DNA of 63,483 nt, the filler included. It is 4 parts of 4 records of this genome, joined end to end, with 100 filler letters (N's around TTAATTAATTAA, not from the genome) between each part and the next. Parts side by side here need not be neighbours in the genome. Positions count along the whole stretch, not along the records: positions 1 to 29,184 come from DRR723986_61098; 3 more parts are not named here. The stretch is one strand, 5' to 3'. Both the position numbers and the translations under genes were made by a program. Numbering within the stretch: the stretch's first letter is position 1; each line of letters begins with the position of its first letter. Below the pieces are notes generated by a model that searched no databases, was not told the origin of the DNA, and saw only the letters and a program-made list of their open reading frames with translations. Below are positions 208 to 16,317 of the stretch, in pieces.

Positions 208-248
208 TTGCGTCCTCTGCGGAAAACTCTGCGTCCTCCGCGGTTATA
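208..248 (-). repeat. 41-bp dispersed intergenic repeat, copy 1 (TATAACCGCGGAGGACGCAGAGTTTTCCGCAGAGGACGCAA)
   Basis: Aligns without gaps to 11814-11854, 11871-11911 and 19056-19096; its TAA is the nitrilase stop codon. Confidence 0.75.
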
Positions 249-1197
249 CAAACTTCACACTCGCCTGCCTCTCTCTATTCACACTCAACTGAAGCACATC
301 AGGTCTAGAGTAATGTCCAACAGGATCGAAGTTCTGCCGCTCTTCCAATACTCGATTGAAATCCAAGGTCTCAATCAAAAGACCTTCCTTATTTGCCACA
401 GGCTCCAAGATCCATTTGCCATCTGGACCTGTAATGCAGGAACCGCCATCCGCTAAAATTTCGGGAGCGTTTTCAAGAATCAAATCTAGGTGAGGTGTGC
501 CAGCTGGAAAGTCAGTTTTACTCATCAAACTTGAAACAGAAATAACAAAGGATCTACTTTCCTGAGCAATCAACCGGGTAATATTTTCTGTGTTTCTGAC
601 AGCTCCTGGCCAAACTGCGATATGGAGATTTTCTCCCAAACCATACAAGGCCGTTCTTGCCAAAGGCATCCAGTTTTCCCAGCAATTGAGCCCTCCGACA
701 GTAAATTCCTTTAACGTATGAACTTGTAGCCCATTTCCATCGCCAGGAGCCCAAGTGAGCCGTTCTTCGTAGGTAGGTTGAAGTTTGCGATGAACGGATT
801 TAATATCACCATCAGTGTTAATATACACCAGCGAGCAATAGATACTGTGGCCACCTCTATCTATGGGTCTTTCGATGATTCCTAAATAAATGGCAATTTT
901 CAAACTTTTAGCTAGCTCTTGAATCTCCAGCAAATCTCCTTTTTCAATCTGAACCGAATTTCTTAAATAATATGCATGAATTTCCTTTTGCACTTTATCA
1001 TCCCAAGCGGATCCATTGGTAATTGACAGCCAAAAAGGATAACCAGGTACCAACCCCTCTCCAAATACAACTAACTCACAACCTTGAGCCGCAGCTTCTT
1101 TGATAGAAGTTTTTACTTTCTCAAGTGTGGCAAATTTGTCTAGCCAAACGGGTGAAATTTGAGCTAGCGCTACTTTCAGAAGATTGGAGGATGTCAT
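244..1197 (-). CDS. Nitrilase / carbon-nitrogen hydrolase family protein
   Basis: E-K-C triad motifs VFGEG, HRKLQPT, LNCWEN and C-terminal FDPVGHYSRPDV; start moved from 1353 to ATG 1197 (MTSSNLLKVALAQ). Confidence 0.9.
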   Translation of the reverse strand: MTSSNLLKVALAQISPVWLDKFATLEKVKTSIKEAAAQGCELVVFGEGLVPGYPFWLSITNGSAWDDKVQKEIHAYYLRNSVQIEKGDLLEIQELAKSLKIAIYLGIIERPIDRGGHSIYCSLVYINTDGDIKSVHRKLQPTYEERLTWAPGDGNGLQVHTLKEFTVGGLNCWENWMPLARTALYGLGENLHIAVWPGAVRNTENITRLIAQESRSFVISVSSLMSKTDFPAGTPHLDLILENAPEILADGGSCITGPDGKWILEPVANKEGLLIETLDFNRVLEERQNFDPVGHYSRPDVLQLSVNRERQASVKFV

Positions 1198-1327
1198 GAT
1201 AGGGGATTTTGATCGGAAATTACAGGATTGTGATCTTCGATCAAAGTGAATTGAGCCTGTAAAAAGTAATCCCCCTAGCCAACTATGGATAGGGGGATTA
1301 ACTGATCGTAAAAGTATATCAACTTTT

Positions 1328-2914
1328 CTATTTGGCAATGTTTGGACCTTCAAAGCCCAGCTTTTTCAATCCTTCCTGAACTTCAGGTGCTCCCATAAAT
1401 AATTTCCAGCCTAGTTCAGTTCTATAGTTTTCTATCATAGCGACCATCGGGCCCTGATCGATCGCAAGGTATCGCTCAGGATAATAATCATGCTCAGGAC
1501 TCATAGCATCATAGAAACCATATCTTCCAAGCACCTTTTTACCATAATTGTAATAGAGGTTTTTGATCACTTTAATGGACTCTTCCGGAGTGTAAGGAAT
1601 AGATGAAATCGCAGCAGTTGGCGAAATTACTCCTGTATCATTTCTAGGAAAATGCGCATTATAGCCGTTGATAGAGTAGGAAGCAGTCAGTCCCCAGAGA
1701 TCTTCTCCGTAGCCGGCAAATCCATTTGGATTTTCAACTACGTGTGCTCGGTTGATAAGCGTATGGTTAGTATTTAGCTTTTGATAGTCTGCGTATTGAT
1801 CTTTCAATCCCATTGGATTTAAGCCCAAATAGGAATAATGGGCCCAGAAAAGGGGTCCGCCCTTTTCTTCAGCTCCATTATGCTTTAAAATCAATTCATA
1901 GCCAAAAGCTTCCTTATCGGATTTGATTCCTCCGCTTCTTGCCCATCCCTTGTGGTAAGCCACGGGATCAATCGTGTGAGTAGGAGAGGAAGCTGCGAGT
2001 ACATAGGTGATAAGACATTCGTTGTATCCTTCCAGAGGGAAGTTCATGTCCCAAGCATACTCCGGTGACCAGTGCCAATACAACACATCCTGCCCGTCTC
2101 GGGTATACCAAGTCCAGTCCATTTCTTTCCAGAGTTGATCTATTCGGTCTGCAACCGCTTTTTGTCTATCATCTCCATCTTTGAAATATTCCCGAACGGC
2201 GATAAGGCTTTGCATCAGGAAGGCAGACTCTACCAGATCGCCCCCATTATCTTTTTGGCCGAAGGGCTGCACTTTTCCTGTTTGTCCATTTATCCAGTGA
2301 GGCCAAACCCCTTTGAATCGGTCAGCTTTTTCCAGAAACCCCACGATTTTTTCAAAACGAGCTACACCTTGTTCTTTGGTGATCCACCCTCTTTCCATCC
2401 CTGCTATCAGACCGAAGATGCCCATTCCAGAACCTCCTGTTGTTACGACGTGGGCATCGTTTTGCGGATATTCTCCATCGATGTGAATTCGCTCTGGAGC
2501 TAGACCAGAATTCGGTTCAGCTCCATCCCAGAAATAGCGGAAGGTATAGAACTCCACCATATCCAGCAGTTCTTCATCCGTCATTTTATGAGTTTTGGCG
2601 GCCGCTCTTCCAACGATGGTAGAATCCTCACCAGAATAAGCTCTGACCTCGTAGTTCAGATCCAGTTCCATCCCGAGGTCATTCACGAAATCCAAGTAAA
2701 TCGTGTCCTCTAGCACAGCCCGTCTGGTATAGTGATCATCATCCATACTTACCCATACTCCATAGGAGTCTGCTTTTGGATCTTTATCCCAAGAGAGTTC
2801 CACATGAATATCATATGGTGTCGCCTTGATGGTATTGGTTTTTTCATCTGCTTGTTGGCAAGCAAATGAAAATACAGCTAAGGTGAGAATGGGGAGGGGC
2901 AAAGGGTTTTTCAT
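1328..2914 (-). CDS. GH144 ('glucoamylase family') endo-beta-1,2-glucanase-like lipoprotein with N-terminal FN3-like segment
   Basis: Lipobox SFAC; motifs TFRYFWDGAEPNSG, DNGGDLVESAF, GGPLFWAHYSYLGL, YLAIDQGP; downstream of susCD. Confidence 0.85.
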   Translation of the reverse strand: MKNPLPLPILTLAVFSFACQQADEKTNTIKATPYDIHVELSWDKDPKADSYGVWVSMDDDHYTRRAVLEDTIYLDFVNDLGMELDLNYEVRAYSGEDSTIVGRAAAKTHKMTDEELLDMVEFYTFRYFWDGAEPNSGLAPERIHIDGEYPQNDAHVVTTGGSGMGIFGLIAGMERGWITKEQGVARFEKIVGFLEKADRFKGVWPHWINGQTGKVQPFGQKDNGGDLVESAFLMQSLIAVREYFKDGDDRQKAVADRIDQLWKEMDWTWYTRDGQDVLYWHWSPEYAWDMNFPLEGYNECLITYVLAASSPTHTIDPVAYHKGWARSGGIKSDKEAFGYELILKHNGAEEKGGPLFWAHYSYLGLNPMGLKDQYADYQKLNTNHTLINRAHVVENPNGFAGYGEDLWGLTASYSINGYNAHFPRNDTGVISPTAAISSIPYTPEESIKVIKNLYYNYGKKVLGRYGFYDAMSPEHDYYPERYLAIDQGPMVAMIENYRTELGWKLFMGAPEVQEGLKKLGFEGPNIAK

Positions 2915-3073: not shown

Positions 3074-4558
3074 TTAGTACCCCGGATTCTGGATGATTGA
3101 ACCTCCGCTAATGTCGATTTCTGACTGAGGTATTGGATAAACTTCATGCTTGCCAGGAGTCCAGGTGATTCCTAGTGCTGCGAACACTTCCTGTGCTCTT
3201 CCTTGTCTCACCAAATCAAAATATCTGTGTTGCTCCATGGCTAATTCCACTCTTCTCTCATGATAGATGGCTTCTCTTAGTTCGGACTGCTCAGTCATAG
3301 TCAAGTCTGGTAAAATATCTTCATTGCCTTGACGGGCTCTTTCTCTCACCAGGTTGACATATTCCAACGCTTGGCTAGAATTCCCGATTTCGTTAGCCGC
3401 CTCTGCTGCGATCAAAAGCAAATCAGCATATCTGAACAAGCGGATATTTGCACCACTGTTACCAAAGCCAGACGGTGGTCTTTCCGGCAACCAAGCTTTT
3501 CTACTAAAACGGGCATTAGCACCCATATTTGGATCTGGCATCACAATCTCTCCTGAAGGCAAAGTATCACCTTCGTTAATTATGGTCGCTGCAAGTCTTG
3601 GATCATTCTCTTCATAAGCAGCCATCAAATCATCCGATGGTCCATTGAAGCCCCAGCCGTTATTTGGATTGCCACGGATTCCCTGCACCTCGTTAAACTG
3701 AGATCCGCCACCACCAGCTTCGAGCGCAACGGTGGACACTTCGAAAATACTTTCTGAAGAATGCTCACCTTCTCTACGGAAAATGCCTTCGTAATCGGGA
3801 TAAAGCTCATATTCACCACTGGCGATCACTTCCTGAGCCATATCATAGGCTTCCTGAAATTCATTTTGAAAAAGGTGCACTTTAGCCAAAAATGACTTTG
3901 CAGCTCCAGCTGTAGCTCTACCTAGTTCAGAAGCCGGATATTCAGACTTCTCTGGCAGATTTGCTGCCGCAAATTCTAAATCTTCCTCTATGAATGCATA
4001 AATCGTTTCTTTGGATACCCGCGCTTGTTGATACTCATCAGGGTTCAACGGGGTTTCGATCAAAGGCAAGTCTCCATAAGTTCTCACTAAAAAGAAGTAG
4101 AAATAGGCTCTTAGAAATCTTGCCTCGCCGATCAATCTGGTTTTTAGTTCCTCATCCATATCGATTTCAGGGACATTTGCGATCACCTGATTAGCGCGGA
4201 AAATTCCTTGAAAATAACCTGACCATATTCCGTTTACTGCAGAATTATTTGCGTCAAAGGTGAAGTCATTGATGTCCTGCAGGAATCCCGCATCGCCGGG
4301 CACAGAACCTTTGTCTGCATCATCTGAAGCGATGTCAGTGACTCCTATGTAGGAAAATACATGCACATTGAAACTTCTCAGATGCGAGTAAATCGCATTA
4401 ACCGCTTGAGTTGCCTGAGTTGCATCTTTGAAGAAATTCTCAGAAGTGAGTTGACCTAATGGTGCTTTCTCCAAGTAATCTTCGCAGGATACTATCCCAA
4501 CACTCATCAGAATGCCGAGGCCTAGGACTGCTATTTTATGGTTTATCTTATTTTTCAT
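3074..4558 (-). CDS. RagB/SusD family nutrient-binding lipoprotein
   Basis: Lipobox IVSC; GEARFLRAYFYF, FRYADLLL, ERRVELAME..RYFDLVR, terminal QNPGY. Confidence 0.95.
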   Translation of the reverse strand: MKNKINHKIAVLGLGILMSVGIVSCEDYLEKAPLGQLTSENFFKDATQATQAVNAIYSHLRSFNVHVFSYIGVTDIASDDADKGSVPGDAGFLQDINDFTFDANNSAVNGIWSGYFQGIFRANQVIANVPEIDMDEELKTRLIGEARFLRAYFYFFLVRTYGDLPLIETPLNPDEYQQARVSKETIYAFIEEDLEFAAANLPEKSEYPASELGRATAGAAKSFLAKVHLFQNEFQEAYDMAQEVIASGEYELYPDYEGIFRREGEHSSESIFEVSTVALEAGGGGSQFNEVQGIRGNPNNGWGFNGPSDDLMAAYEENDPRLAATIINEGDTLPSGEIVMPDPNMGANARFSRKAWLPERPPSGFGNSGANIRLFRYADLLLIAAEAANEIGNSSQALEYVNLVRERARQGNEDILPDLTMTEQSELREAIYHERRVELAMEQHRYFDLVRQGRAQEVFAALGITWTPGKHEVYPIPQSEIDISGGSIIQNPGY

Positions 4559-4570
4559 TTGTTTTTGGGT

Positions 4571-7500
4571 TTAGAAGCTGGCTGAGACGCCTACGTTAAA
4601 CGTTCTTGCTACTGGGTATAGACCGCTGTCATATCCAGTTCCTAGTACATTTCCACCGCCGATTTCAGGCGTGTATCCTGAGTATTTTGTCCATGTCAAG
4701 ACATTTGTACCGGATAGGTAAACTCGGAAGTTTTGAAGCTTTACCTTACTTAAAACTATCTCAGAGAAGTTGTAGCCAACTTGGATGTTTCTCAATCTCA
4801 AGAAAGAACCGTCTTCTACAAATCTATCAGAGACTTCGTAGTTGTGTCCGCCATTCGTAACTCTAGGTTCAGAATTACTTGTGCCTTCACCAGTCCATCT
4901 GTCTAAGTAGCTTGTTTCAAAATTGTAGGTGTTGAAGCGGGTTTGCTTCTTCGCATTGTAGATTTCGTTTCCGAGTGTACCGTTGAAATCTGCACGCAGG
5001 TCAAAGCCTTTGTAGTCAAAGCCGAAATTGAAACCGTAAACCAGATCAGGAATTGGGCTTCCAAGAATTACACGGTCATTGTTGTTCACAACTCCGTCTC
5101 CATTGGTATCTTCATAGATTAAGTCACCAGCTACTTCTGGTCCTCGCTTTGGAATGGAAGAAAGGTCAGCTTCGTTTTGGAAAACTCCTGCTGTCTTGTA
5201 GCCATAGTAGTGTCCGATTGATTCACCTACGATCGTTCTGGATCCGAGGTAGCCTGAGATTCCTACGGCTCCGCCGAAAATAGCCTCATTGCCATCTCCC
5301 AAATCCAATACTTCGTTATTTACAGTGGAAGCGACGATTCCAAAATTGTAGGAAAAGTCACCTTTTTGATCTCTCCAATTTAACGTAAGGTCAATCCCTG
5401 AATTCTTCACATTTGCTGCATTGACTACAGGATTGTTGGAAGCACCTACATAAGAGGGAATCGGAACTGCTACCAGGATGTCGTTAGTGGTTCTAGTATA
5501 ATAGTCCAATTCACCTGTCAGTTTCTCATTAAAAAAGCCAAACTCGAAACCAATATTTGAGGTAACTGTTTCTTCCCATTGAATAAATGGATTAGAAAGT
5601 CTAGTTATGGTCGCACCGTAAACCAACTCTTCATTTTCACCGAATACGGCGTTTTGGTTTCCATTTACTACAGGACGGCCTTCATAAACATAGATCTTGT
5701 CGTTACCGATTTTTCCCCAGCTACCGCGTATTTTCAGATTGGAAAGAAAATTTTGGTTTTGAAGGAATCCTTCTTCGATGATGTTATATCCAAGTGCAAT
5801 GGAAGGGAAATTTCCATATCTTCTCTCTTCCCCAAATCGGCTAGATCCATCTCTTCTAAATGTACCTGTAAAGAGAAACTTGTTTTTGAACGTATAATTT
5901 GCTCTGAAAAGATAGGAAAGCATAGCCCAGGACTCTCCTGAATTAGAATTGGTCTGGGAGGTCAGTTCACCGGCATTCAAATACCAAAGTGAAGGGTCTT
6001 CACCTGGAAGATTCCTTCTTCCTCCACCTAGGGATTCTGTATAGAAATCTTGGGTGGTAATACCGCCCAGCAAGTTAAGCCGATGGTCTTCCCACTCTTT
6101 GCTGTAGTTCAGTGTATTCTCCCAGAGAATATTTGTATTTCTCATATTGGAAACATTAACAGAATTCTCGGGATTCTGCTGGGTAGGAGAAACAAAGTAA
6201 ACAGGAGTAAAGCTTTTAGAGTCCTGAAATACCAGGTCTAGCCCAACATTACTTCGGAAGGTGAAGTTCTTAAGGAATTTCACATCCATGAAGAAGTTAC
6301 CCACTCCACGGTAGTTGTTGGTGCGGTTATTTGAGTTGTACTCAAACTGTGCAGCGGGATTTCCTACTGGAGCTGTGTTGGTATAGCTTCCATCAGGCTG
6401 AGTAGGCTCGAAAATCGGATACGCACGATATGCATTTCCAATTACCCCAGGCTCATTTTGCTGATTGTAATAGATGAAAGAAAGGTTGTGACCAAAAGTC
6501 ACTGCTTCGCTCATTTTGTACTGGTTGTTCAATCGGATTGTCAAACGTTCGAATTCTGATTCTTTGACCACACCTTGTTGATTGAAATAATTCGCACTTA
6601 GGTTGAAGTTTGTTTTCGCTGAACCTCCATTCGCGCCAATGCTAATGTTATTGATTGGAGCATTTCTGAAGATGTAATCTTGCCAATCTGTTCCTTCCTG
6701 GTAATCATTTACATTATAAATTGGCTGATTCCCTACATTTTGCTCCAGCTCATTTGCCAGTTGCGCAAATTCACGGGCGTTTACTAGGTTGATTTTATTA
6801 GCTACTTGCTGCACACCTGTGTATGCATCCACAGTTACTCGCGTATCTGTGTCAAATGAACCTTGTTTGGTAGTGACGATGATTACCCCATTTGCACCTC
6901 TCGATCCGTAAATAGCCGTGGCAGAGGCATCTTTCAATACCTCCATGGATTCCACATCATTTGGGTTTAGGAAATTGATATCATCAAGCAGCATCCCGTC
7001 GACTACATACAGAGGATTTGAATTGTTCAATGTACCGACACCACGAATCCTAACTGTAGAGCCCGCTCCTGGAGCACCGGAATTTTGGGTAATCTGGACA
7101 CCACTGACGCGTCCTTGGAGAGATTGGGTCACATCGGAAACAGGCAGTCGACTGATATCTTCAGATTTGACACTGGAGATCGCACCTGTCAGATCGCTTT
7201 TACGCTGAATACCATATCCGACGACTACAAACTCATCAAGATCAGATAGATCTTCTCCAAGTGTCACGTTAATGGTAGTTCTTCCATTTATTGGCTTCTC
7301 TACCGTTTGAAATCCCACGAAGGTGAATACCAAAACTGCGGCTTCTGGGACTTCTAAGGAATACTTACCATCAAGGTCAGTGACAGTTCCGTTGGTGGTT
7401 CCTTTGATGACCACATTCACTCCTGGAAGAGGAAATCCAGTGTCATCAACAACAGTGCCGCTGACCGGAACATTTTGTCCAAACGAATCATGGACAGTAA

Positions 7501-7582
7501 AGAATGAGAATAGGAGAAGGGTTAAAATTAAATACTTGTTCAGATGCCAAGTATTTCCCCGCTCAGGTAGCAATTTTTCCAT
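4571..7582 (-). CDS. SusC/RagA family TonB-dependent transporter
   Basis: N-terminal carboxypeptidase-regulatory-like domain, VVVGYG, LKDASATAIYGSRGANGVIIVTTK plug motif, RRDGSSRFG, terminal Phe. Confidence 0.96.
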   Translation of the reverse strand: MEKLLPERGNTWHLNKYLILTLLLFSFFTVHDSFGQNVPVSGTVVDDTGFPLPGVNVVIKGTTNGTVTDLDGKYSLEVPEAAVLVFTFVGFQTVEKPINGRTTINVTLGEDLSDLDEFVVVGYGIQRKSDLTGAISSVKSEDISRLPVSDVTQSLQGRVSGVQITQNSGAPGAGSTVRIRGVGTLNNSNPLYVVDGMLLDDINFLNPNDVESMEVLKDASATAIYGSRGANGVIIVTTKQGSFDTDTRVTVDAYTGVQQVANKINLVNAREFAQLANELEQNVGNQPIYNVNDYQEGTDWQDYIFRNAPINNISIGANGGSAKTNFNLSANYFNQQGVVKESEFERLTIRLNNQYKMSEAVTFGHNLSFIYYNQQNEPGVIGNAYRAYPIFEPTQPDGSYTNTAPVGNPAAQFEYNSNNRTNNYRGVGNFFMDVKFLKNFTFRSNVGLDLVFQDSKSFTPVYFVSPTQQNPENSVNVSNMRNTNILWENTLNYSKEWEDHRLNLLGGITTQDFYTESLGGGRRNLPGEDPSLWYLNAGELTSQTNSNSGESWAMLSYLFRANYTFKNKFLFTGTFRRDGSSRFGEERRYGNFPSIALGYNIIEEGFLQNQNFLSNLKIRGSWGKIGNDKIYVYEGRPVVNGNQNAVFGENEELVYGATITRLSNPFIQWEETVTSNIGFEFGFFNEKLTGELDYYTRTTNDILVAVPIPSYVGASNNPVVNAANVKNSGIDLTLNWRDQKGDFSYNFGIVASTVNNEVLDLGDGNEAIFGGAVGISGYLGSRTIVGESIGHYYGYKTAGVFQNEADLSSIPKRGPEVAGDLIYEDTNGDGVVNNNDRVILGSPIPDLVYGFNFGFDYKGFDLRADFNGTLGNEIYNAKKQTRFNTYNFETSYLDRWTGEGTSNSEPRVTNGGHNYEVSDRFVEDGSFLRLRNIQVGYNFSEIVLSKVKLQNFRVYLSGTNVLTWTKYSGYTPEIGGGNVLGTGYDSGLYPVARTFNVGVSASF

Positions 7583-7630
7583 TTGGCGTATTGGGTTTGG
7601 TTTAGTTAATAACTAGAGACACATACTTGC

Positions 7631-7661
7631 TCCAGTGGCAAATGAAACTACCACCACTGGA
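7631..7661. promoter_or_regulatory. Candidate operator: inverted repeat TCCAGTGG-N15-CCACTGGA upstream of susC
   Basis: Perfect 8-bp GC-rich arms in an AT-rich intergenic region, 49-79 bp upstream of the susC ATG. Confidence 0.4.
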
Positions 7662-7844
7662 AGATTTTAAGAAAAAATAACTTCGAAATCGATTGAAAAA
7701 ATGTTTGGAAACTAACGATTTCTGGTTGTCTATTCCTGCTTTGTTTTCATTGAAAAAACGTCTATTTAATTAATTTAGGGGGTTTTTAGAAATTCGTTCA
7801 CGCTTTATTATCAGGATTTGACTACCAATGATAATTGCTTGAAA

Positions 7845-9725
7845 TCAGTTGAGTTCATGCGATCTCTCCAGCACGATGTCCTCCCATTCAGGTTGATGAA
7901 TCCCCTTCATTTCAAGTTGCAATTTGACCTTTACCCTGAAGCTACTTATCGCGTTTACTCTGAGATCCAGCAACTGGGAAAGCTCTTCCAGCGTGAGTTT
8001 GCTATGCTCGGAAATGACGGTGTAGGATAGGTAAAATGCTTTTTCAATCGGGAGACGGATACCGTGGAAAATCGTCCCAGCAGTGGCTGATTCTATATGA
8101 CCGCAACGTGAGCATCGACGGTGAAAAACCTTTGAGCTCTTCGAGAATTTAGTATGCTCACAAGCTTTGCATGAGAATCCATTGTCCCATTTGACTTGCT
8201 CCAGGTAACGAAGGCAAGCGGTAGAATCTGGGAATATCTTTTTGAAATCTTCATAGCTCATCCGTTTATTGGTGATTCTGGCCTGTAGGTTCTCCTTGAT
8301 CTGAGACTTTAGCTTCCAGATGTCTTTATCCAAAATGGAGTTAATACGCTTAATTTCTTCGTCCTTTTCTAGGATCTGCTGATTGTATTCTAGGAGGAGT
8401 TGGTTCTTTTTAGCCAGTTCCTGAGTTCTTTCATTGACTCTTTGCTCCAATTCTCTATTGACCTTTTCTTTCAGCTGGGCATTTGCCTCTGCTTGACGAA
8501 GAGAGCGAAGTAATGCCCGATCACGATTGTCTTTTAGAATTTTCACCCGATCACCAAGTGCCAAAGTTAGCAGCAACATCTCCATCAGAAAGGCAATGTG
8601 CAAACTGTAGTAAATTACTGTGCTGTGTGGAATAATGGCTGTGTGGACCATTGCTTTCAGTGCTACTCCCAAAAAAAGAATAGCATAAGCAATTACAAAT
8701 AAACGTGCTACGCTGTAGCCTTTTACCAAGACATAAACGCTGGAAAAAAGTATGAGAAAGAAGGGAATGATATCGTAAATCTGAATTTCTAACAGCGCTG
8801 GAAAAAAAGCAATTCCAGCTGCGAAAAGAATTGTTTTAGCTAGGAGCAATACATGAAAGCAGCGATGCATGCTGGGGAATCTCCTCTTCAAATTGAGGAA
8901 GTGAGTGGAGAAAAGCAGCGCAAATACGATGATCAAAAAGCTGGAGAGGCCCGATATAGGCTGGTTCCACTCAGGATGATTGGGCCATAAATACTGGAAT
9001 GCGATCCCATCTACACAAGCTGCAAAAATACCTACGCTTAGTAAGTAGAATACATAATACAAGTATTTCACCTCTTTAATAGCCAGATAAATCAATCCAT
9101 TGTAAAGTGAAATAATCAGAATCATTCCATAGAAAATGCCATAAAGGAAGTACTCATTTAGTGCATAATAGATGAAGCGATTGTAGGATCTGAAGGCAAT
9201 TCGTATGTCAGCCTTTTGCGAAGATTTGATTTTGAAATAATAGGTGGCTATTCCTGGAGTTTCATTTTCTACAGGGATGTGAAAGTTTTTATGTGCAAAG
9301 ATTCTGTCTCCAAAAGGTGCTTTATCACCGAGTTTTAATTCCTTATATCCGCTTTCTGAGGGTATATAGGCTGTTATTTGATCAATCGTCTGGTCATAAA
9401 ATTCCATCAGCCACTGCTTGTTACTTTGCGGTGTTTTCTGAATTGCTACTTTGACCCAATAGGTACTTTCGGTTGAAAACTTATTTTTGTTGAAGTCAGG
9501 ATTGATCTTGAGTTTGCCGTTAATTGGATTGGAGAGTATATCGCTAAGCTCCAGCTCGTTGCTCTGGTCTTCATAGAAAGTAAGGCGGTCTATCGCATAG
9601 ATTCTTTCGTCAAGCTGATCGTTGATTTGAAAAGTGTACTGGGATGATTGGGCAAGTGCATAGGAAGACAACAAACTGCTCACTGCACTCAGGAGTACAA
9701 ATACATTTCGATAAAACTTGTCCAT
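7845..9725 (-). CDS. 7TM-DISM membrane sensor with coiled coil and C-terminal IS1595-transposase-like zinc ribbon/HTH (putative one-component regulator)
   Basis: Signal peptide; DISMED2-like ectodomain (YWVKV, EFYDQTID, GDKAPFGDR); about 7 TM helices ending LALGDRVKIL; coiled coil; CKAC/CSRC and SATAGTIFHGIRLP; start moved to ATG 9725. Confidence 0.85.
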   Translation of the reverse strand: MDKFYRNVFVLLSAVSSLLSSYALAQSSQYTFQINDQLDERIYAIDRLTFYEDQSNELELSDILSNPINGKLKINPDFNKNKFSTESTYWVKVAIQKTPQSNKQWLMEFYDQTIDQITAYIPSESGYKELKLGDKAPFGDRIFAHKNFHIPVENETPGIATYYFKIKSSQKADIRIAFRSYNRFIYYALNEYFLYGIFYGMILIISLYNGLIYLAIKEVKYLYYVFYLLSVGIFAACVDGIAFQYLWPNHPEWNQPISGLSSFLIIVFALLFSTHFLNLKRRFPSMHRCFHVLLLAKTILFAAGIAFFPALLEIQIYDIIPFFLILFSSVYVLVKGYSVARLFVIAYAILFLGVALKAMVHTAIIPHSTVIYYSLHIAFLMEMLLLTLALGDRVKILKDNRDRALLRSLRQAEANAQLKEKVNRELEQRVNERTQELAKKNQLLLEYNQQILEKDEEIKRINSILDKDIWKLKSQIKENLQARITNKRMSYEDFKKIFPDSTACLRYLEQVKWDNGFSCKACEHTKFSKSSKVFHRRCSRCGHIESATAGTIFHGIRLPIEKAFYLSYTVISEHSKLTLEELSQLLDLRVNAISSFRVKVKLQLEMKGIHQPEWEDIVLERSHELN

Positions 9726-9833
9726 AAAACATTGGGTATATTCCTGTAGAAGGAACAAAAACGACACCCAATGCTTTTGGTTTGTGAAATCGAAGGGTTT
9801 ATTTGAAAATAGTCAGCAGTCGAAGCGCCGTGA

Positions 9834-12258: not shown

Positions 12259-14922
12259 TTATTTCTGCTGTTCCAAATAGGTCACTAACGAAGCTAGCTC
12301 TTCATAAGAAAGTGAATTAGCAAGCCCTGGAGGCATCATGGAAGTTTCCATCACCTTACGAGTCTTGATAGTGCTTTTGTCAAGTTTAGTTGCTGTACCA
12401 GTAATGTCCTGAATTACAACTTCGTCCGCGGTCTCAGCTGTGACAAACCCCATATAAGATTTGTTGTCATTTGTGTCGATCAGAACTGATGCAAAACCTT
12501 GTGAGATAGATGCATTCGGCTTCAGAATAGATTCAGTGATCTGAGAACGGTTCATAATAGAACCTATCTGCCCCATAAATGGACCTTTCAGCGGCTGACC
12601 TTTCTCGATACTATGACATGCTATGCATCCTTGGCTGGTGAAGAGGGTTTTGCCTTTCACTGGATCTCCTTTGAGATCTTGTACTGCGATCATCACATCT
12701 TCGATAGAAGAAGCTCCGACCTGTCCTTTTTTGCTTTTGATTTTCTCCAGATCCACTTCTGTTTCCTGAATCACCAAGTTGGATTGCTCTTCACCAAACT
12801 CTTCTATATCCATTCGATTACGCTCGTTTAGCTCAGTGAAGAATTGTCTTTTCGTTGGGTCCTCTTGGGCATTACGTTCACCTACCAAGAAGTCTTTGAT
12901 TTTGTCTGAAGCCTCCCAAGTGATGCCTTTGTAATACGGACCATGCGTGTCTGGGCGAGTTCCCCACCACCATGAACCGTCATAAGGAGCTTCTTTCTTA
13001 TACAATCTAGAAAGTGTACCCAAAATCTCAGCTTTCAACTCCATGTCATCAGTATCGCCATAGGCTTTGATCAAGCCATCCACTGCTTTCGGATCATGCA
13101 TGTAGCGCAAAGTCCAAAGTGCGATTTTTGAATTCTCTGTTCCAATAGCTTCTACAGCTGCATCCACCGCATGAAGTTTAACCAGTGATTTCACAGCTAC
13201 GTGTGGAAGAATAATGGCTGAATTAGGTGTAGCGTGTGGGCCTTCGGTGCCTTTCTCTGGCTGCTTGAATGAAGCTGGTACTTTCACTTTTAGCAATTCC
13301 TCAGCAGCTTCTGGATTGCCTATTCTTCCCAAAGCAACAATCGCCGCGGACTTCACACGGTCATTAGGATCAGTGACTCCCTCAATGAATGGGTCTAGTG
13401 GAACTCCCTGAAGGCAGGTTTTACGATCCGCCAGAGCTCTTAAGGCAAATTCTCTGATTTTCTCTTCCTGACTAAGTTTTACCAATTCTCCATTTCCATT
13501 TTCACAAGTAGCCTGCGCATAAGTGTAGATACCCGCAACTCTAGCTTCCAGCGGTAAAGTTTTATCAGTTGCAACAGAAAGTGCTGCAGCACCAGCTTCC
13601 TCAGGGAAACGAGCTAGCATTTCACGCTGAGCATGAAAGCGAGCAACGGAATTAGTGGCTTTAAGTAAAGCGGTTAATTCGTCAAGAGTTGCGGCTTTCA
13701 AGTCTGGAAAAGGTTCGTAAGTCCAATCCTTAGGTACTACTCTTACTACATATCCTTTTTCTTCACTGCCAAAATAGCCAGCCCCATCCCATGCAGCGAG
13801 AAACATGCGTCCGGAGGCATCGACATCTAAATCTGAGATTTGAGGAAGTTTGATGAATTCTTCAGTCTGCTGAGTAAAACCAGGGCCATCCATAGTTACC
13901 CTGTGAATGTACAATTGACTGCGGCCCCAATCCGCCATCATTGGCACGTGATTGTATTTTGCTGGCCAGCGATCATCATCCATAAAGTAACTACCAGTAC
14001 CTGATCCGCCACCTAGATCAACCAGTGCTGGTATGGTTTCTTCCGTGAAGTTTTTGAAAAAGTTAGGGTACCCGTACTCACCGGATTGGGTATAGTGAAT
14101 GAAACGAATATTCCAGCCACCTCCATCATTGGTATTGCCACGCGTATAAATATTCATAAATGGATCTATCGCGACATCGTAGATATTTCTTGTTCCATGG
14201 ATGTATTCTTCCATTTCGGTTCCGTCTGGCCGTACTCGGACTATACCTCCACCCAGCATAGTCATTTGCGTTCCATCTCTGTCAGTAGCATTGTGGAACC
14301 CAAAATCTCCAACTGCGATGTAAATCCAGCCATCGATACCCATTCTGATTCCATTAGTAGAGTGATCTGTGCCACGGGAACGTATGGATTCAGGTGATGA
14401 GATTCCCTCAATTAGCATTTTGGATGGACCATCAGCTACACCGTCGTTATCCTTATCTTCATAAACTACCAAGTTCATTCCCTCGGCTTTTCCAGTTTCT
14501 TCGGAAAATTGTGTGTGGAGAACAAAGACTTGATCTCTTACAGCGATTATTCCACGTGGGTTATCCACTTTGACAAACTCCGTGTGGGCATCCAGTTCGC
14601 CATCATTATTACTATCCACGAGTCGTACAATTGCTCCTTTTCCAGGCTCTTTACCAAGTGAACCCATCATATCTACCCCAACAAACACGTTGCCGTCGGG
14701 AGATACCGCCAATGCTGCAGGTGATGGAACTATATCCGGTCCCGCAAAATTAGTCATGATCAGCTCGGTACTGTCTGCGCCATGCATGGCTGTGTCTAGG
14801 GGGTACTGTGGATAGTAATTGGTAAGTTCTTCTAAGTCAGCTTTTCTGGTGTCGGGTTTTGAGCATCCGAATGCTAGAAAGGTGCCTATAATTGCTATTA
14901 TAGGAAGGGAAATTTTAGACAT
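12259..14922 (-). CDS. PVC-type membrane-bound dehydrogenase-like lipoprotein: beta-propeller + HEAT-like repeats + cytochrome c
   Basis: Lipobox AFGC; DHSTNGIRMGIDGWIYIAVGDFG and GTRNIYD propeller motifs; CIACH heme motif; SMMPPGL. Confidence 0.85.
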   Translation of the reverse strand: MSKISLPIIAIIGTFLAFGCSKPDTRKADLEELTNYYPQYPLDTAMHGADSTELIMTNFAGPDIVPSPAALAVSPDGNVFVGVDMMGSLGKEPGKGAIVRLVDSNNDGELDAHTEFVKVDNPRGIIAVRDQVFVLHTQFSEETGKAEGMNLVVYEDKDNDGVADGPSKMLIEGISSPESIRSRGTDHSTNGIRMGIDGWIYIAVGDFGFHNATDRDGTQMTMLGGGIVRVRPDGTEMEEYIHGTRNIYDVAIDPFMNIYTRGNTNDGGGWNIRFIHYTQSGEYGYPNFFKNFTEETIPALVDLGGGSGTGSYFMDDDRWPAKYNHVPMMADWGRSQLYIHRVTMDGPGFTQQTEEFIKLPQISDLDVDASGRMFLAAWDGAGYFGSEEKGYVVRVVPKDWTYEPFPDLKAATLDELTALLKATNSVARFHAQREMLARFPEEAGAAALSVATDKTLPLEARVAGIYTYAQATCENGNGELVKLSQEEKIREFALRALADRKTCLQGVPLDPFIEGVTDPNDRVKSAAIVALGRIGNPEAAEELLKVKVPASFKQPEKGTEGPHATPNSAIILPHVAVKSLVKLHAVDAAVEAIGTENSKIALWTLRYMHDPKAVDGLIKAYGDTDDMELKAEILGTLSRLYKKEAPYDGSWWWGTRPDTHGPYYKGITWEASDKIKDFLVGERNAQEDPTKRQFFTELNERNRMDIEEFGEEQSNLVIQETEVDLEKIKSKKGQVGASSIEDVMIAVQDLKGDPVKGKTLFTSQGCIACHSIEKGQPLKGPFMGQIGSIMNRSQITESILKPNASISQGFASVLIDTNDNKSYMGFVTAETADEVVIQDITGTATKLDKSTIKTRKVMETSMMPPGLANSLSYEELASLVTYLEQQK

Positions 14923-15138: not shown

Positions 15139-16317
15139 TTACTTCAGTTGATTTTCAAACAAAAATATCCCGTTCTTATTTGCAATAACGATATCAGGTT
15201 TTCCATCCTTATTCATGTCTTCAACGGCAATGTTTAGACCGGCTCCCGAATCATTATCAATGATGTGCTCGCGGAAAAACGGGCCTATCATCGGGGTGAA
15301 TTCGAAATATAGCAAGTAGGGGGTGTCCTCGTCTCCCGCGTCATTTCCATTGTGTGCCAAGTACCTCTTTCCAGTGATCATTTCCATATCTCCATCTCCG
15401 TTCAGATCAGCCATAATTGTGGAATGGGTTTGGGCTGTTATGTTACTCATGAGGTGAGTTTTGAAAGTTGTATCATTCCTGTACTCATGCCACCATATAC
15501 CCATAGAATGCGCTGAGGAACTGACCACGTCATTATCCATGTCTCCGTTGACATCGAGAACCTGCATGTGGGAAGCAGGATCACTTATGAGCACTGGATG
15601 GAAAATCCAGTCTCCGGAATTCTTATCCGCTTTGCCTTCAAACCAACCTTCTGAGATCACTACGTCTTTGATTTTATCCCCGTTTACATCTCCGTAGCCT
15701 AAGCCATGCGAAAAACGATCAGTTCCAGGTACATTTTCTTCTGAAATATTAAAGCGCTTCCATTCAGTTGCTTCAGGTGTGGTTGGAGCTTGGAGCCAGA
15801 TAATTTGTCTTTTTTCATAGTCACCACACAAGATGTCGAGGCGGCCGTCCCCATCAATGTCCACAAATGCAGGCGACTCATTTGAGATGCCCACTGAGTC
15901 TGCGATGATATGCTTTTTCCAGTTGTTACTTTCTGTTTTTGGGTTTTCAAACCAATAAGCAGGAGTACCCGGATAATCTATAATGACCACATCATCCCAG
16001 CCATCGAGATTTACATCCATCCCTAGGTTTAAAAAGGAATTGCTGTATTCTTTTCTTGGGTCAAAAACTTTAGAAGGAGATATCTCATGGCGTGTCCAAT
16101 CCGGCGCTTCAAACCAATAGTAGCCTGCTATTATATCCAGCTGACCATCTTTATTCATATCGCCCACAGCCACTCCTTCAGAGAGAAAATCGCGTGTAAT
16201 TACAGTTTTTTTGAATTCCAGTTCATGTTCTTGGCTAAAAGCTGGATTAGTAAAGAGGAATAAAGTCATAATGACGCATAACCGTTGATACCCAAGTTTA
16301 AAAATGTTTCGCTTCAT
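15139..16317 (-). CDS. FG-GAP/VCBS repeat protein, exported
   Basis: Repeated DxNxDGxxD motifs (DMNKDGQLD, DVNLDGWDD, DIDGDGRLD, DVNGDKIKD, DLNGDGDME, DMNKDGKPD). Confidence 0.88.
   Translation of the reverse strand: MKRNIFKLGYQRLCVIMTLFLFTNPAFSQEHELEFKKTVITRDFLSEGVAVGDMNKDGQLDIIAGYYWFEAPDWTRHEISPSKVFDPRKEYSNSFLNLGMDVNLDGWDDVVIIDYPGTPAYWFENPKTESNNWKKHIIADSVGISNESPAFVDIDGDGRLDILCGDYEKRQIIWLQAPTTPEATEWKRFNISEENVPGTDRFSHGLGYGDVNGDKIKDVVISEGWFEGKADKNSGDWIFHPVLISDPASHMQVLDVNGDMDNDVVSSSAHSMGIWWHEYRNDTTFKTHLMSNITAQTHSTIMADLNGDGDMEMITGKRYLAHNGNDAGDEDTPYLLYFEFTPMIGPFFREHIIDNDSGAGLNIAVEDMNKDGKPDIVIANKNGIFLFENQLK

Follow-up and report, generated by a model that had tools for sequence, protein, structure and literature searches.

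The window considered here (the whole stretch of DNA analysed, 63,483 nucleotides with its filler letters included) raises the question of what a gene for a seven-helix membrane receptor that ends in a transposase-like module is doing directly upstream of a susC-like gene. This gene, referred to below as the regulator gene, lies at 7845..9725 on the minus strand and is followed on that strand by susC, susD and a GH144-type glucanase gene, so that an adjacent susC/susD pair joined to a carbohydrate-active enzyme (CAZyme) gene marks the locus as a polysaccharide utilization locus (PUL). Here the window shares at least 99% identity with Algoriphagus winogradskyi DSM 15360; at the A. winogradskyi locus (L002) the regulator, SusC and GH144 are 100%, 99% and 98% identical to those of the window, and the regulator is the sole copy of its type in that genome. 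The regulator is probably a membrane-embedded, DNA-binding one-component transcription regulator of the adjacent beta-1,2-glucan PUL (susC-susD-GH144). With somewhat less assurance we take it to activate that PUL, a direction suggested by the upstream position of conserved elements and by analogy with BguR of Formosa agariphila.

Domain architecture of the regulator

The reading frame can be extended to a GTG start (7845..9767, minus strand), and the start codon of orthologues matches the ATG at 9725, which gives a protein of 626 residues. The gene and its parts are as follows.

7845..9725, minus strand: regulator gene, 626 aa plus stop
9651..9725, minus strand: signal peptide, residues 1-25 (hydropathy, 7-25; AlphaFold2 helix 2-25, then a low-confidence break)
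9195..9587, minus strand: 7TMR-DISMED2 periplasmic beta-sandwich sensor, residues 47-177 (Pfam PF07696, E 6.5e-27)
8547..9155, minus strand: 7TMR-DISM_7TM, seven membrane helices, residues 191-393 (Pfam PF07695, E 6.4e-45; hydropathy, positive-inside loops, AlphaFold2)
8268..8546, minus strand: long cytoplasmic helix continuing the seventh membrane helix, residues 394-486 (AlphaFold2 helix 369-486; heptad seam 430-472)
8097..8228, minus strand: IS1595-type zinc ribbon, residues 500-543 (Zn_ribbon_IS1595, PF12760, E 8.9e-8, 32.4 bits against a cut-off of 25.4)
7908..8048, minus strand: three-helix domain resembling a helix-turn-helix (HTH), residues 560-606, recognition helix at about 590-606 (AlphaFold2, VIA-align, profile match, transposase homology)

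A reading of the window from its sequence only had proposed a signal peptide, a DISMED2-like ectodomain and about seven transmembrane (TM) helices, and on these Pfam, hydropathy and AlphaFold2 agree. Hydropathy places seven TM segments within residues 193-391, and loops 1-2, 3-4 and 5-6 are rich in lysine and arginine; the protein is therefore predicted to lie N-out/C-in, with a periplasmic ectodomain and the C-terminal 235 residues in the cytoplasm. The full-length AlphaFold2 model, built from 80 homologues (pLDDT 86.1), shows a beta-sandwich at residues 31-180, seven helices of which TM7 runs on unbroken as one helix to residue 486, and a compact C-terminal domain with two short helices, a three-stranded ribbon and helices at 560-571, 579-586 and 590-606. 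The top Foldseek match of the ectodomain is the periplasmic domain of RetS (3JYB, E 4.5e-5, TM-score 0.65 on the target). The long coiled coil proposed earlier corresponds to a helix of about 95 residues with heptads, evident in both the model and the conservation, where conserved hydrophobic positions recur at exactly 7 residues (430, 437 and onward to 472); we presume that this linker (394-486) forms a dimeric coiled coil or signalling helix.

The IS1595-like module begins at nucleotide 8261 (residue 489), as had been claimed, and the protein terminates about 20 residues past the HTH. A HMMER check returned 7TMR-DISMED2, 7TMR-DISM_7TM and Zn_ribbon_IS1595, and the Pfam scan of the regulator gave no DDE_Tnp_IS1595 at E<=0.01. 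Apart from Zn_ribbon_IS1595, Pfam finds no kinase, receiver, phosphotransfer or other output domain; HisKA, HATPase_c, REC and AraC-type HTH are absent by Pfam and NCBIfam, Reg_prop, Y_Y_Y and GerE have no Pfam match in the regulator, and no NCBIfam model matches the protein. In domain content it is a one-component regulator, with a sensor and a predicted DNA-binding output in one polypeptide and without phosphotransfer domains.

Linkage to a beta-1,2-glucan utilization locus

The genes that follow the regulator gene in the window are:

4571..7582, minus strand: susC-like TonB-dependent transporter (Pfam Plug, CarbopepD_reg_2, beta-barrel)
3074..4558, minus strand: susD-like lipoprotein (Pfam SusD_RagB, SusD-like_3)
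1328..2914, minus strand: GH144-type endo-beta-1,2-glucanase homologue (PF10091, E 4e-75; PDB 5GZH, E 4e-183)

No other regulator gene is seen beside this PUL in the window. About 100 N-terminal residues of the GH144 homologue are not covered by 5GZH, the match beginning at residue 104.

Homologues of the regulator had been expected in databases, and the fusion is far from unique to this assembly. Among 8000 scored candidates 1415 proteins match at E<=1e-5, with the full-length architecture recurring, and 315 relatives occur in one-genome-per-species contigs; the locus work described below rests on 80 loci kept from these 315. The 80 come from Cytophagales-type records except for two oddly labelled metagenome-assembled genomes (MAGs), one labelled Limnohabitans (L019) and one Flavobacteriaceae (L066), whose sequences nonetheless group with Algoriphagus/Cytophagales and which are probably misbinned contigs.

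The position directly upstream of susC, noted in the sequence-only reading, is kept across these loci. A SusC homologue starts on the same strand within 1 kb downstream in 63 of the 69 loci that retain at least 1.5 kb after the gene, and in three of the six without susC a GH144 gene is directly downstream instead; where at least 8.9 kb is available downstream, a GH144 homologue follows on the same strand in 54 of 57 loci. Gene order persists though SusC and SusD identity falls to about 35% and 25% and that of the regulator to 44%. The loci are relatives of one another, so these counts show conservation and not independent events. In a Chryseolinea MAG the cluster reads regulator-SusC-SusD-Big_5/LamG protein-GH144-GH144. 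Elsewhere GH144 is found with Big_5 domains, tandem-duplicated, or preceded by a Big_5/Laminin_G_3 protein that resembles a surface glycan-binding protein.

Two other ways in which the protein might serve the locus can be set beside this linkage. One is transport, with the 7-TM domain carrying oligosaccharides across the inner membrane: the minimal PUL of the window (susC, susD, GH144) shows no inner-membrane sugar transporter. We regard this role as very improbable, given that 7TMR-DISM domains are described as receptor modules on kinase, GGDEF and similar outputs in a study of NicD (PMC8544897), that a transport role leaves a nucleic-acid-binding module under purifying selection unexplained, and that paralogues of the regulator adjoin secreted enzymes of the T9SS (type IX secretion system) without any transporter context.

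The other is that the regulator is a membrane-tethered precursor, in which ligand triggers proteolysis of the linker and a freed, soluble ribbon-HTH fragment acts on the promoter. Residues 465-482, just before the module, form the only low-confidence stretch (pLDDT<50) of the long helix, and short proteins consisting of the module only do exist (P0132 and P0224, both 148 aa), which may be fragments of metagenome contigs. This too seems unlikely to us: heptads reach residue 472, no protease gene is conserved in the locus, and the tight linkage in cis between regulator and target (the 63 of 69 loci above) is what one expects of a factor that does not diffuse. The analogue BguR, moreover, is discussed as acting while membrane-spanning in its preprint (bioRxiv 10.64898/2026.01.10.698779). 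We thus favour a regulator that stays in the membrane and contacts DNA from there.

Origin and conservation of the C-terminal module

The resemblance to IS1595-family transposases is real and extends past the ribbon into the HTH. Searched by tblastn against plasmid records, residues 480-626 show 28-35% identity, across query residues 6-135, to proteins annotated as IS1595-family transposases, with E values as low as 4e-15. A 300-aa Chondrinema IS1595 transposase in which DDE_Tnp_IS1595 is present aligns by BLASTP without gaps over 116 residues at 35% identity (E 2e-25), from the first helix through the third HTH helix and so across both ribbon and HTH; transposases of about 302 aa from other Bacteroidota genomes fit the module profile with E values between 1e-35 and 1e-40. 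Compared with IS1595/ISXO2 transposases as a group, residues ~486-606 are homologous to the N-terminal 120-130 residues (helices, CxxC...CxxC ribbon, three-helix HTH), whereas the regulator is without DDE_Tnp_IS1595, without terminal inverted repeats (IRs) and not multi-copy, is fused behind a receptor and belongs to a separate module clade.

Modelled separately, the C-terminal module reaches a pLDDT of 85.6 and a pTM of 0.81. Its last three helices align by VIA-align with homeodomain and other HTH-DNA complexes at Z ~4 (rmsd 2.1 A over 51 residues to 1DU0), the module profile matches the MarR winged HTH at E 0.004, and Foldseek returns nothing for the C-terminal model at E<=0.001. These fold matches are weak, compatible with an HTH but not decisive, so the HTH assignment leans mainly on homology to the transposase head.

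An insertion sequence (IS) as such is not what we see here. The absence of a DDE domain and of IS ends, claimed earlier, holds in that no IS-like IRs were found flanking the module. By contrast, a genuine related IS1595-family element (L085/L111, G037) is 1002 bp long, with terminal IRs of 22-23 bp and a duplicated target. It occurs in at least 3 copies, its terminal repeats read ACGCATTAkCCCTTTArTTCCCT, a TAACATT duplication is seen at one of the copies, and the head of its transposase is among those closest to the regulator module (E 1e-39). Such IS ends were considered as a source of operator sequence, and the idea was dropped: these IRs resemble no element of the regulator-susC spacer. The regulator itself is single-copy in 4 of the 5 genomes searched.

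The module is present in 78 of the 80 loci at 44-100% identity, the other two being truncated where their contigs stop; in one more locus the sequence breaks off after 48 residues. An orthologue in a MAG (L045) carries an in-frame stop inside the HTH and is a possible pseudogene or sequencing error. The four cysteines said to be intact, in CxxC pairs at 519/522 and 538/541, are invariant together with C504 in alignments of 11 and of 80 sequences; in a 55-sequence alignment of the module the four ribbon cysteines are again invariant and C504 nearly so. The recognition-helix residues N591, F596 and K599 are invariant or nearly so. Among nine Algoriphagus orthologues (Nei-Gojobori, 36 pairs), dN/dS is 0.031 for residues 486-626 (25 of 36 pairs computable), 0.034 for the 7TM part (28 of 36) and 0.051 for the ectodomain (10 of 36), figures that are rough because dS is saturated at 1.2-2.5; at the level of sequence comparison they show the whole protein to be under purifying selection.

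When 151 genomes from the order to which A. winogradskyi belongs were sampled, 47 gave a match at E<=1e-20, and 41 of these hold at least one match that ends a frame of at least 580 aa (read from the table). One genome, G001, shares 33% of the window's words yet is without an orthologue of the regulator; only frames of at most 436 aa, transposase-sized or fragments, occur in its order (27 of 151 genomes). G001 may be a chimeric or misplaced bin and is probably not true kin of the window.

A module tree was built from 76 rows, after exclusion of rows with fewer than 95 profile positions and of three duplicates; the 113 rows of 7TM type were thinned to 49, keeping the row of the window and genome-derived loci. 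All 22 transposases and all 54 regulators fall on opposite sides of a branch with 98% SH-aLRT. This split is consistent with one exaptation; given the root and the transposase sampling, the sequences leave a single origin unproven.

A recent IS1595 insertion scar or an assembly chimera, with a fortuitous in-frame fusion and no function, might be suggested by the presence of an IS1595-family transposase gene about 11 kb away in the A. winogradskyi genome and by a database entry that labels one orthologue 'transposase'. It is ruled out by the retention of the fusion in the 78 loci, by its 762 cluster representatives at E<=1e-10 (see below), by a dN/dS of about 0.03, by the lack of IRs flanking the module and by the regulator/transposase branch. 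The nearby transposase gene encodes 310 aa and lies about 3 kb beyond the window start (G152:C1:669357-669782, loci L121/L126); its head matches the module profile at E only 2.8e-15 and belongs to a transposase clade far removed in the tree, which means that the regulator module did not come from it. Other database names for proteins of the family are '7TM diverse intracellular signaling domain-containing protein', 'receptor' and 'LadS'.

A second kind of sensor carries the same module. All five of the module matches of about 1000 aa that were tested consist of Reg_prop beta-propellers, Y_Y_Y and Zn_ribbon_IS1595, the module standing in place of the kinase/receiver/AraC part of a hybrid two-component system (HTCS) or of the GerE part of BguR, and in the tree these modules nest inside the 7TM-type clade. 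The module has been swapped as a C-terminal unit between two unrelated membrane glycan sensors and so behaves as an output domain. We infer that it was exapted from a transposase and later reused on this second sensor type.

The regulator-susC spacer and candidate operators

Between the regulator gene and susC lie 262 bp, which differ by a few bases from the A. winogradskyi spacer; across loci the spacer ranges from 205 to 486 bp. Its features are:

7583..7844, minus strand: regulator-susC spacer, candidate control region
7797..7813, minus strand: distal box TGATAATAAAGCGTGAA, some 230 nt ahead of the susC ATG, part of a block kept in 10 aligned Algoriphagus spacers
7733..7759, minus strand: proximal element GTTTTTTCAATGAAAACAAAGCAGGAA, a T-run plus box, holding the palindrome GTTTT-N7-AAAAC
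7681..7700, minus strand: conserved block TTTTTCAATCGATTTCGAAG (conservation footprint in Algoriphagus spacers)
7643..7650, minus strand: conserved TAGTTTCA, possible -7-like promoter element (conservation footprint)

Five blocks are kept in the ten aligned Algoriphagus spacers: CCTGATAATAAAGCGTGAA; GTTTTT-N-TGAAAnnAAAGCAGGAAT; TTTTTCAATCGATTTCGAAG; TAGTTTCA; and AACCAAACCCAAT. The first two, which hold the distal and proximal box, form a direct repeat 64 bp apart, and TAGTTTCA is an element that may correspond to the Bacteroidota promoter consensus TAnnTTTG. An iterated nhmmer profile of the second block (clade A, that of the window) also matches Cyclobacterium, Penaeicola and one distant MAG, and in scans of whole loci all 17 of its matches lie in the regulator-susC spacer, 169-199 nt before the susC ATG. 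A Chryseolinea/Ohtaekwangia-type clade (B) has the motif AAAACGATTG-TAAT-CAATGTTTTT...AAAAA(A)C; of 65 non-redundant spacers 24 contain CAATGTTTTT, where shuffled sequences reach at most 5. The clade-B profile, built from 34 instances and scanned with nhmmer over the 80 loci, gives 35 matches at E<0.01, every one just past the regulator gene; one, in L079, precedes GH144 and the other 34 precede susC, and three fall in loci outside the training set. A weaker second copy of the motif is often found about 66 bp upstream in clade B.

All 16 loci with the recognition helix NAIS(S/N)F carry the clade-A box, and a match with three mismatches is found in only 2 of 53 other spacers, a co-variation of helix and box that is no more than suggestive, because the 16 loci form one clade. 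No terminator-like site is found in the window spacer, and no Rfam family either (best snoR12, E 0.4), so that a cis-regulatory RNA is not supported. A further palindrome, TTATCA-N16-TGATAA at 7808-7835, shares part of its sequence with the distal box; of its two arms, just the right one is kept in Algoriphagus spacers. A window-by-window conservation scan of the spacer was discarded since AT-rich low complexity dominated its signal.

The wider family

A search with the module by itself brings up 4554 cluster representatives (clustered at 50% identity) at E<=0.001; of these, 762 pass E<=1e-10 and 42 pass E<=1e-30. Most of the best 150 matches measure 580-660 aa and have the module as their last part. 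In the 151-genome sample, copies per genome reach 13 (G195), followed by 9, 7 and 7. Paralogues in Pseudochryseolinea flava precede susC-susD-hypothetical-GH30-GH30 and a lone T9SS-tailed GH30, and a Persicobacter paralogue is found at a GH16/GH3 PUL, where the regulator comes after the GH16 gene.

A bulk survey took in 33 further paralogues, 13 from G195 and 20 from seven genomes. None of the 33 adjoins susC or susD; same-strand glycan genes lie downstream of 12, and 18 have no glycan gene nearby. Of the 13 copies in G195, 5 have T9SS cargo or CAZymes next to them downstream on the same strand (GH5-CBM6, GH8, GH3, a PKD/CHU_C giant, and a T9SS-tail protein with a more distant GH5), CAZyme genes run convergently towards 3, and 5 are without such genes. 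One of these last five is broken (L166, G195:C1:407480-419914), in pieces of 415 aa and 245 aa, and is a possible pseudogene or sequencing error. In the seven-genome set, glycan genes accompany 7 of 20 on the same strand (CE2/deacetylase; CBM6/GH18/GH16; Pel9A-like beta-helices; in two cases sulfatase pairs; and in two a sugar kinase/transporter cluster), and 13 have none obvious. The regulators form a broader family that is not strictly PUL-bound.

These paralogues also bear on whether the module might bind protein or RNA (another regulator, RNA polymerase or a transposase) instead of promoter DNA, with control of the PUL indirect or absent. Zinc ribbons serve varied functions, ribosomal and RNA-polymerase ribbons are among the weak matches of the module in fold and sequence, and the 18 paralogues without an obvious adjoining glycan target would be easier to accommodate. 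We nevertheless hold such an output to be improbable: transposases and regulators have the HTH in common, down to the recognition-helix pattern N/Q-T-x-W-x-F-x-x-K, no partner gene is conserved beside the regulator, and the conserved elements lie exactly in the adjoining spacer. Direct DNA binding at the PUL promoter is the reading we retain.

Several points weigh against it all the same. The HTH fold matches are the weak ones given above, and the selection estimates come from saturated dS. The spacer motifs are drawn from orthologous, related sequences, in which conservation shows function but not the identity of the binder. The motifs of clades A and B differ, and in an intermediate group (Anditalea, A. 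vanfongensis and others) no clear spacer element was found; a strict palindrome, GTTTT-N5-10-AAAAC, was rejected as a universal operator, being present in only 15 of 69 spacers. More than half of the bulk-surveyed paralogues (the 18 of 33) lack a nearby glycan gene, and none of the 33 has susC/susD, so the family as a whole does not follow a rule of adjacency. Binding of DNA and of zinc, the nature of the ligand, dimer formation, regulatory effect and membrane retention are properties that we infer. The computational checks suggested in the sequence-only reading all came out in favour of the role as a PUL regulator proposed there; the wider family, for its part, reaches beyond PULs.

Genes flanking the PUL

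Upstream of the PUL the window holds genes for a GDPD protein, a PRC-barrel protein, a DUF7133/HEAT/cytochrome c protein and an FG-GAP protein, and a nitrilase-type gene lies past its other end.

12259-14922, minus strand: DUF7133 + HEAT + cytochrome c protein, 887 aa, no evident link to the PUL
15139-16317, minus strand: FG-GAP repeat protein, 392 aa, no evident link to the PUL
244-1353, minus strand: CN_hydrolase (nitrilase-type) gene, overlapping the end of the GH144 gene

A CN_hydrolase gene follows GH144 only in 4 loci (L002, L003, L004, L013) among the closest ones of Algoriphagus, and membership of the PUL is therefore improbable.

Comparison with known regulators

The system resembles several known ones in part. 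Like the HTCS and SusR of Bacteroides, it would be an inner-membrane glycan sensor, encoded beside susC/susD, that controls PUL transcription (control being predicted here); unlike HTCS it has no HisKA, HATPase, REC or AraC domains. Proteins of the ToxR/CadC type are also membrane-embedded direct DNA binders, with the DNA-binding domain at the N-terminus and a DNA-binding fold different from the present module. ChiS of Vibrio cholerae likewise combines a membrane-embedded sensor with direct DNA binding, as predicted here, but its DNA-binding fold is different and ChiS-type proteins retain kinase/receiver domains. The Fig. 5 legend of the ChiS-DBD preprint includes 7TMR-DISM architectures of Proteobacteria in that family. 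With 7TMR-DISM receptors (RetS, LadS, NicD) the regulator shares the DISMED2 ectodomain and the 7TM module, whereas their outputs are histidine kinase or GGDEF and its own is a predicted DNA-binding domain, with no enzymatic domain. The DISMED2 domain of NicD is described as a carbohydrate-binding cue sensor (PMC8544897).

BguR offers a fuller comparison. According to its preprint (bioRxiv 10.64898/2026.01.10.698779), this Formosa agariphila protein comprises a signal peptide, beta-propellers, Y_Y_Y, one TM, a linker and a GerE HTH, and is encoded directly upstream of susC/susD; without it the bacterium no longer grows on laminarin and the PUL loses its 70-110-fold induction; homologues are tied to beta-glucan PULs and in Flavobacteriia are found with GH144 PULs as well; and no membrane one-component regulator except SusR is named there as comparable. 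The two proteins share a signal peptide, periplasmic sensor, membrane span, helical linker and C-terminal HTH without a phosphorelay, as well as the position directly upstream of susC/susD of a beta-glucan PUL and a conserved motif between the regulator and the first PUL gene. They differ in sensor, span and output (tandem beta-propellers plus Y_Y_Y, one TM and a GerE/LuxR HTH in BguR, against DISMED2, seven TM and an IS1595-derived ribbon plus HTH here), and no sequence relation between them is seen. The regulator looks like a non-orthologous replacement of BguR for the same type of PUL, in Cytophagales as against Flavobacteriia, and the Reg_prop, Y_Y_Y and Zn_ribbon_IS1595 proteins join a BguR/HTCS-like sensor to the present output.

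We found no paper in the open-access literature that links 7TMR-DISM with IS1595 or zinc ribbons, PULs or SusC regulation. SusR and BguR have already been described, and therefore the kind of system is known; the combination of sensor and output and the transposase origin of the output appear undescribed. The 'new class of one-component PUL regulator' first proposed for this gene accordingly stands for its 7TMR-DISM sensor and transposase-derived output, and not for the principle of a membrane-bound one-component PUL regulator.

Proposed mechanism and significance

In the mechanism we propose, GH144 would release beta-1,2-gluco-oligosaccharides, SusCD would import them and DISMED2 would bind them in the periplasm. 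The signal might then travel, in a dimer, through the 7-TM bundle and the helix that continues TM7, re-orienting the two ribbon-HTH modules of the dimer, which, still tethered to the membrane, would attach to the repeated T-run/box elements some 170-230 nt ahead of the susC start codon and so turn on transcription.

A broader proposal, for and against which we find the case evenly balanced, is that a single ancient exaptation of an IS1595 head yielded a new receptor output domain, carried in Cytophagales by 7-TM (DISMED2) and beta-propeller/Y_Y_Y glycan sensors in up to 13 copies per genome and acting as a membrane-retained, ligand-gated activator at repeated T-run/box operators about 180 nt before the leading gene of glycan-utilization clusters. 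The member in the window would then be a dedicated beta-1,2-glucan switch and the functional counterpart of the BguR of Flavobacteriia.

Exaptations of transposase domains are well known in eukaryotes and, to our knowledge, rarely documented in bacteria. The present family would be a clear bacterial case, in which a transposase DNA-binding domain became a receptor output and was shuffled between sensor types. For annotation it means that PF12760 at the C-terminus of a receptor should not be taken as a mobile element. PUL regulation beyond gut Bacteroides is poorly charted, and if the reading given here is true it would add a large unannotated family of regulators, together with a concrete candidate switch for beta-1,2-glucan use in Cytophagales, complete with predicted operator boxes.

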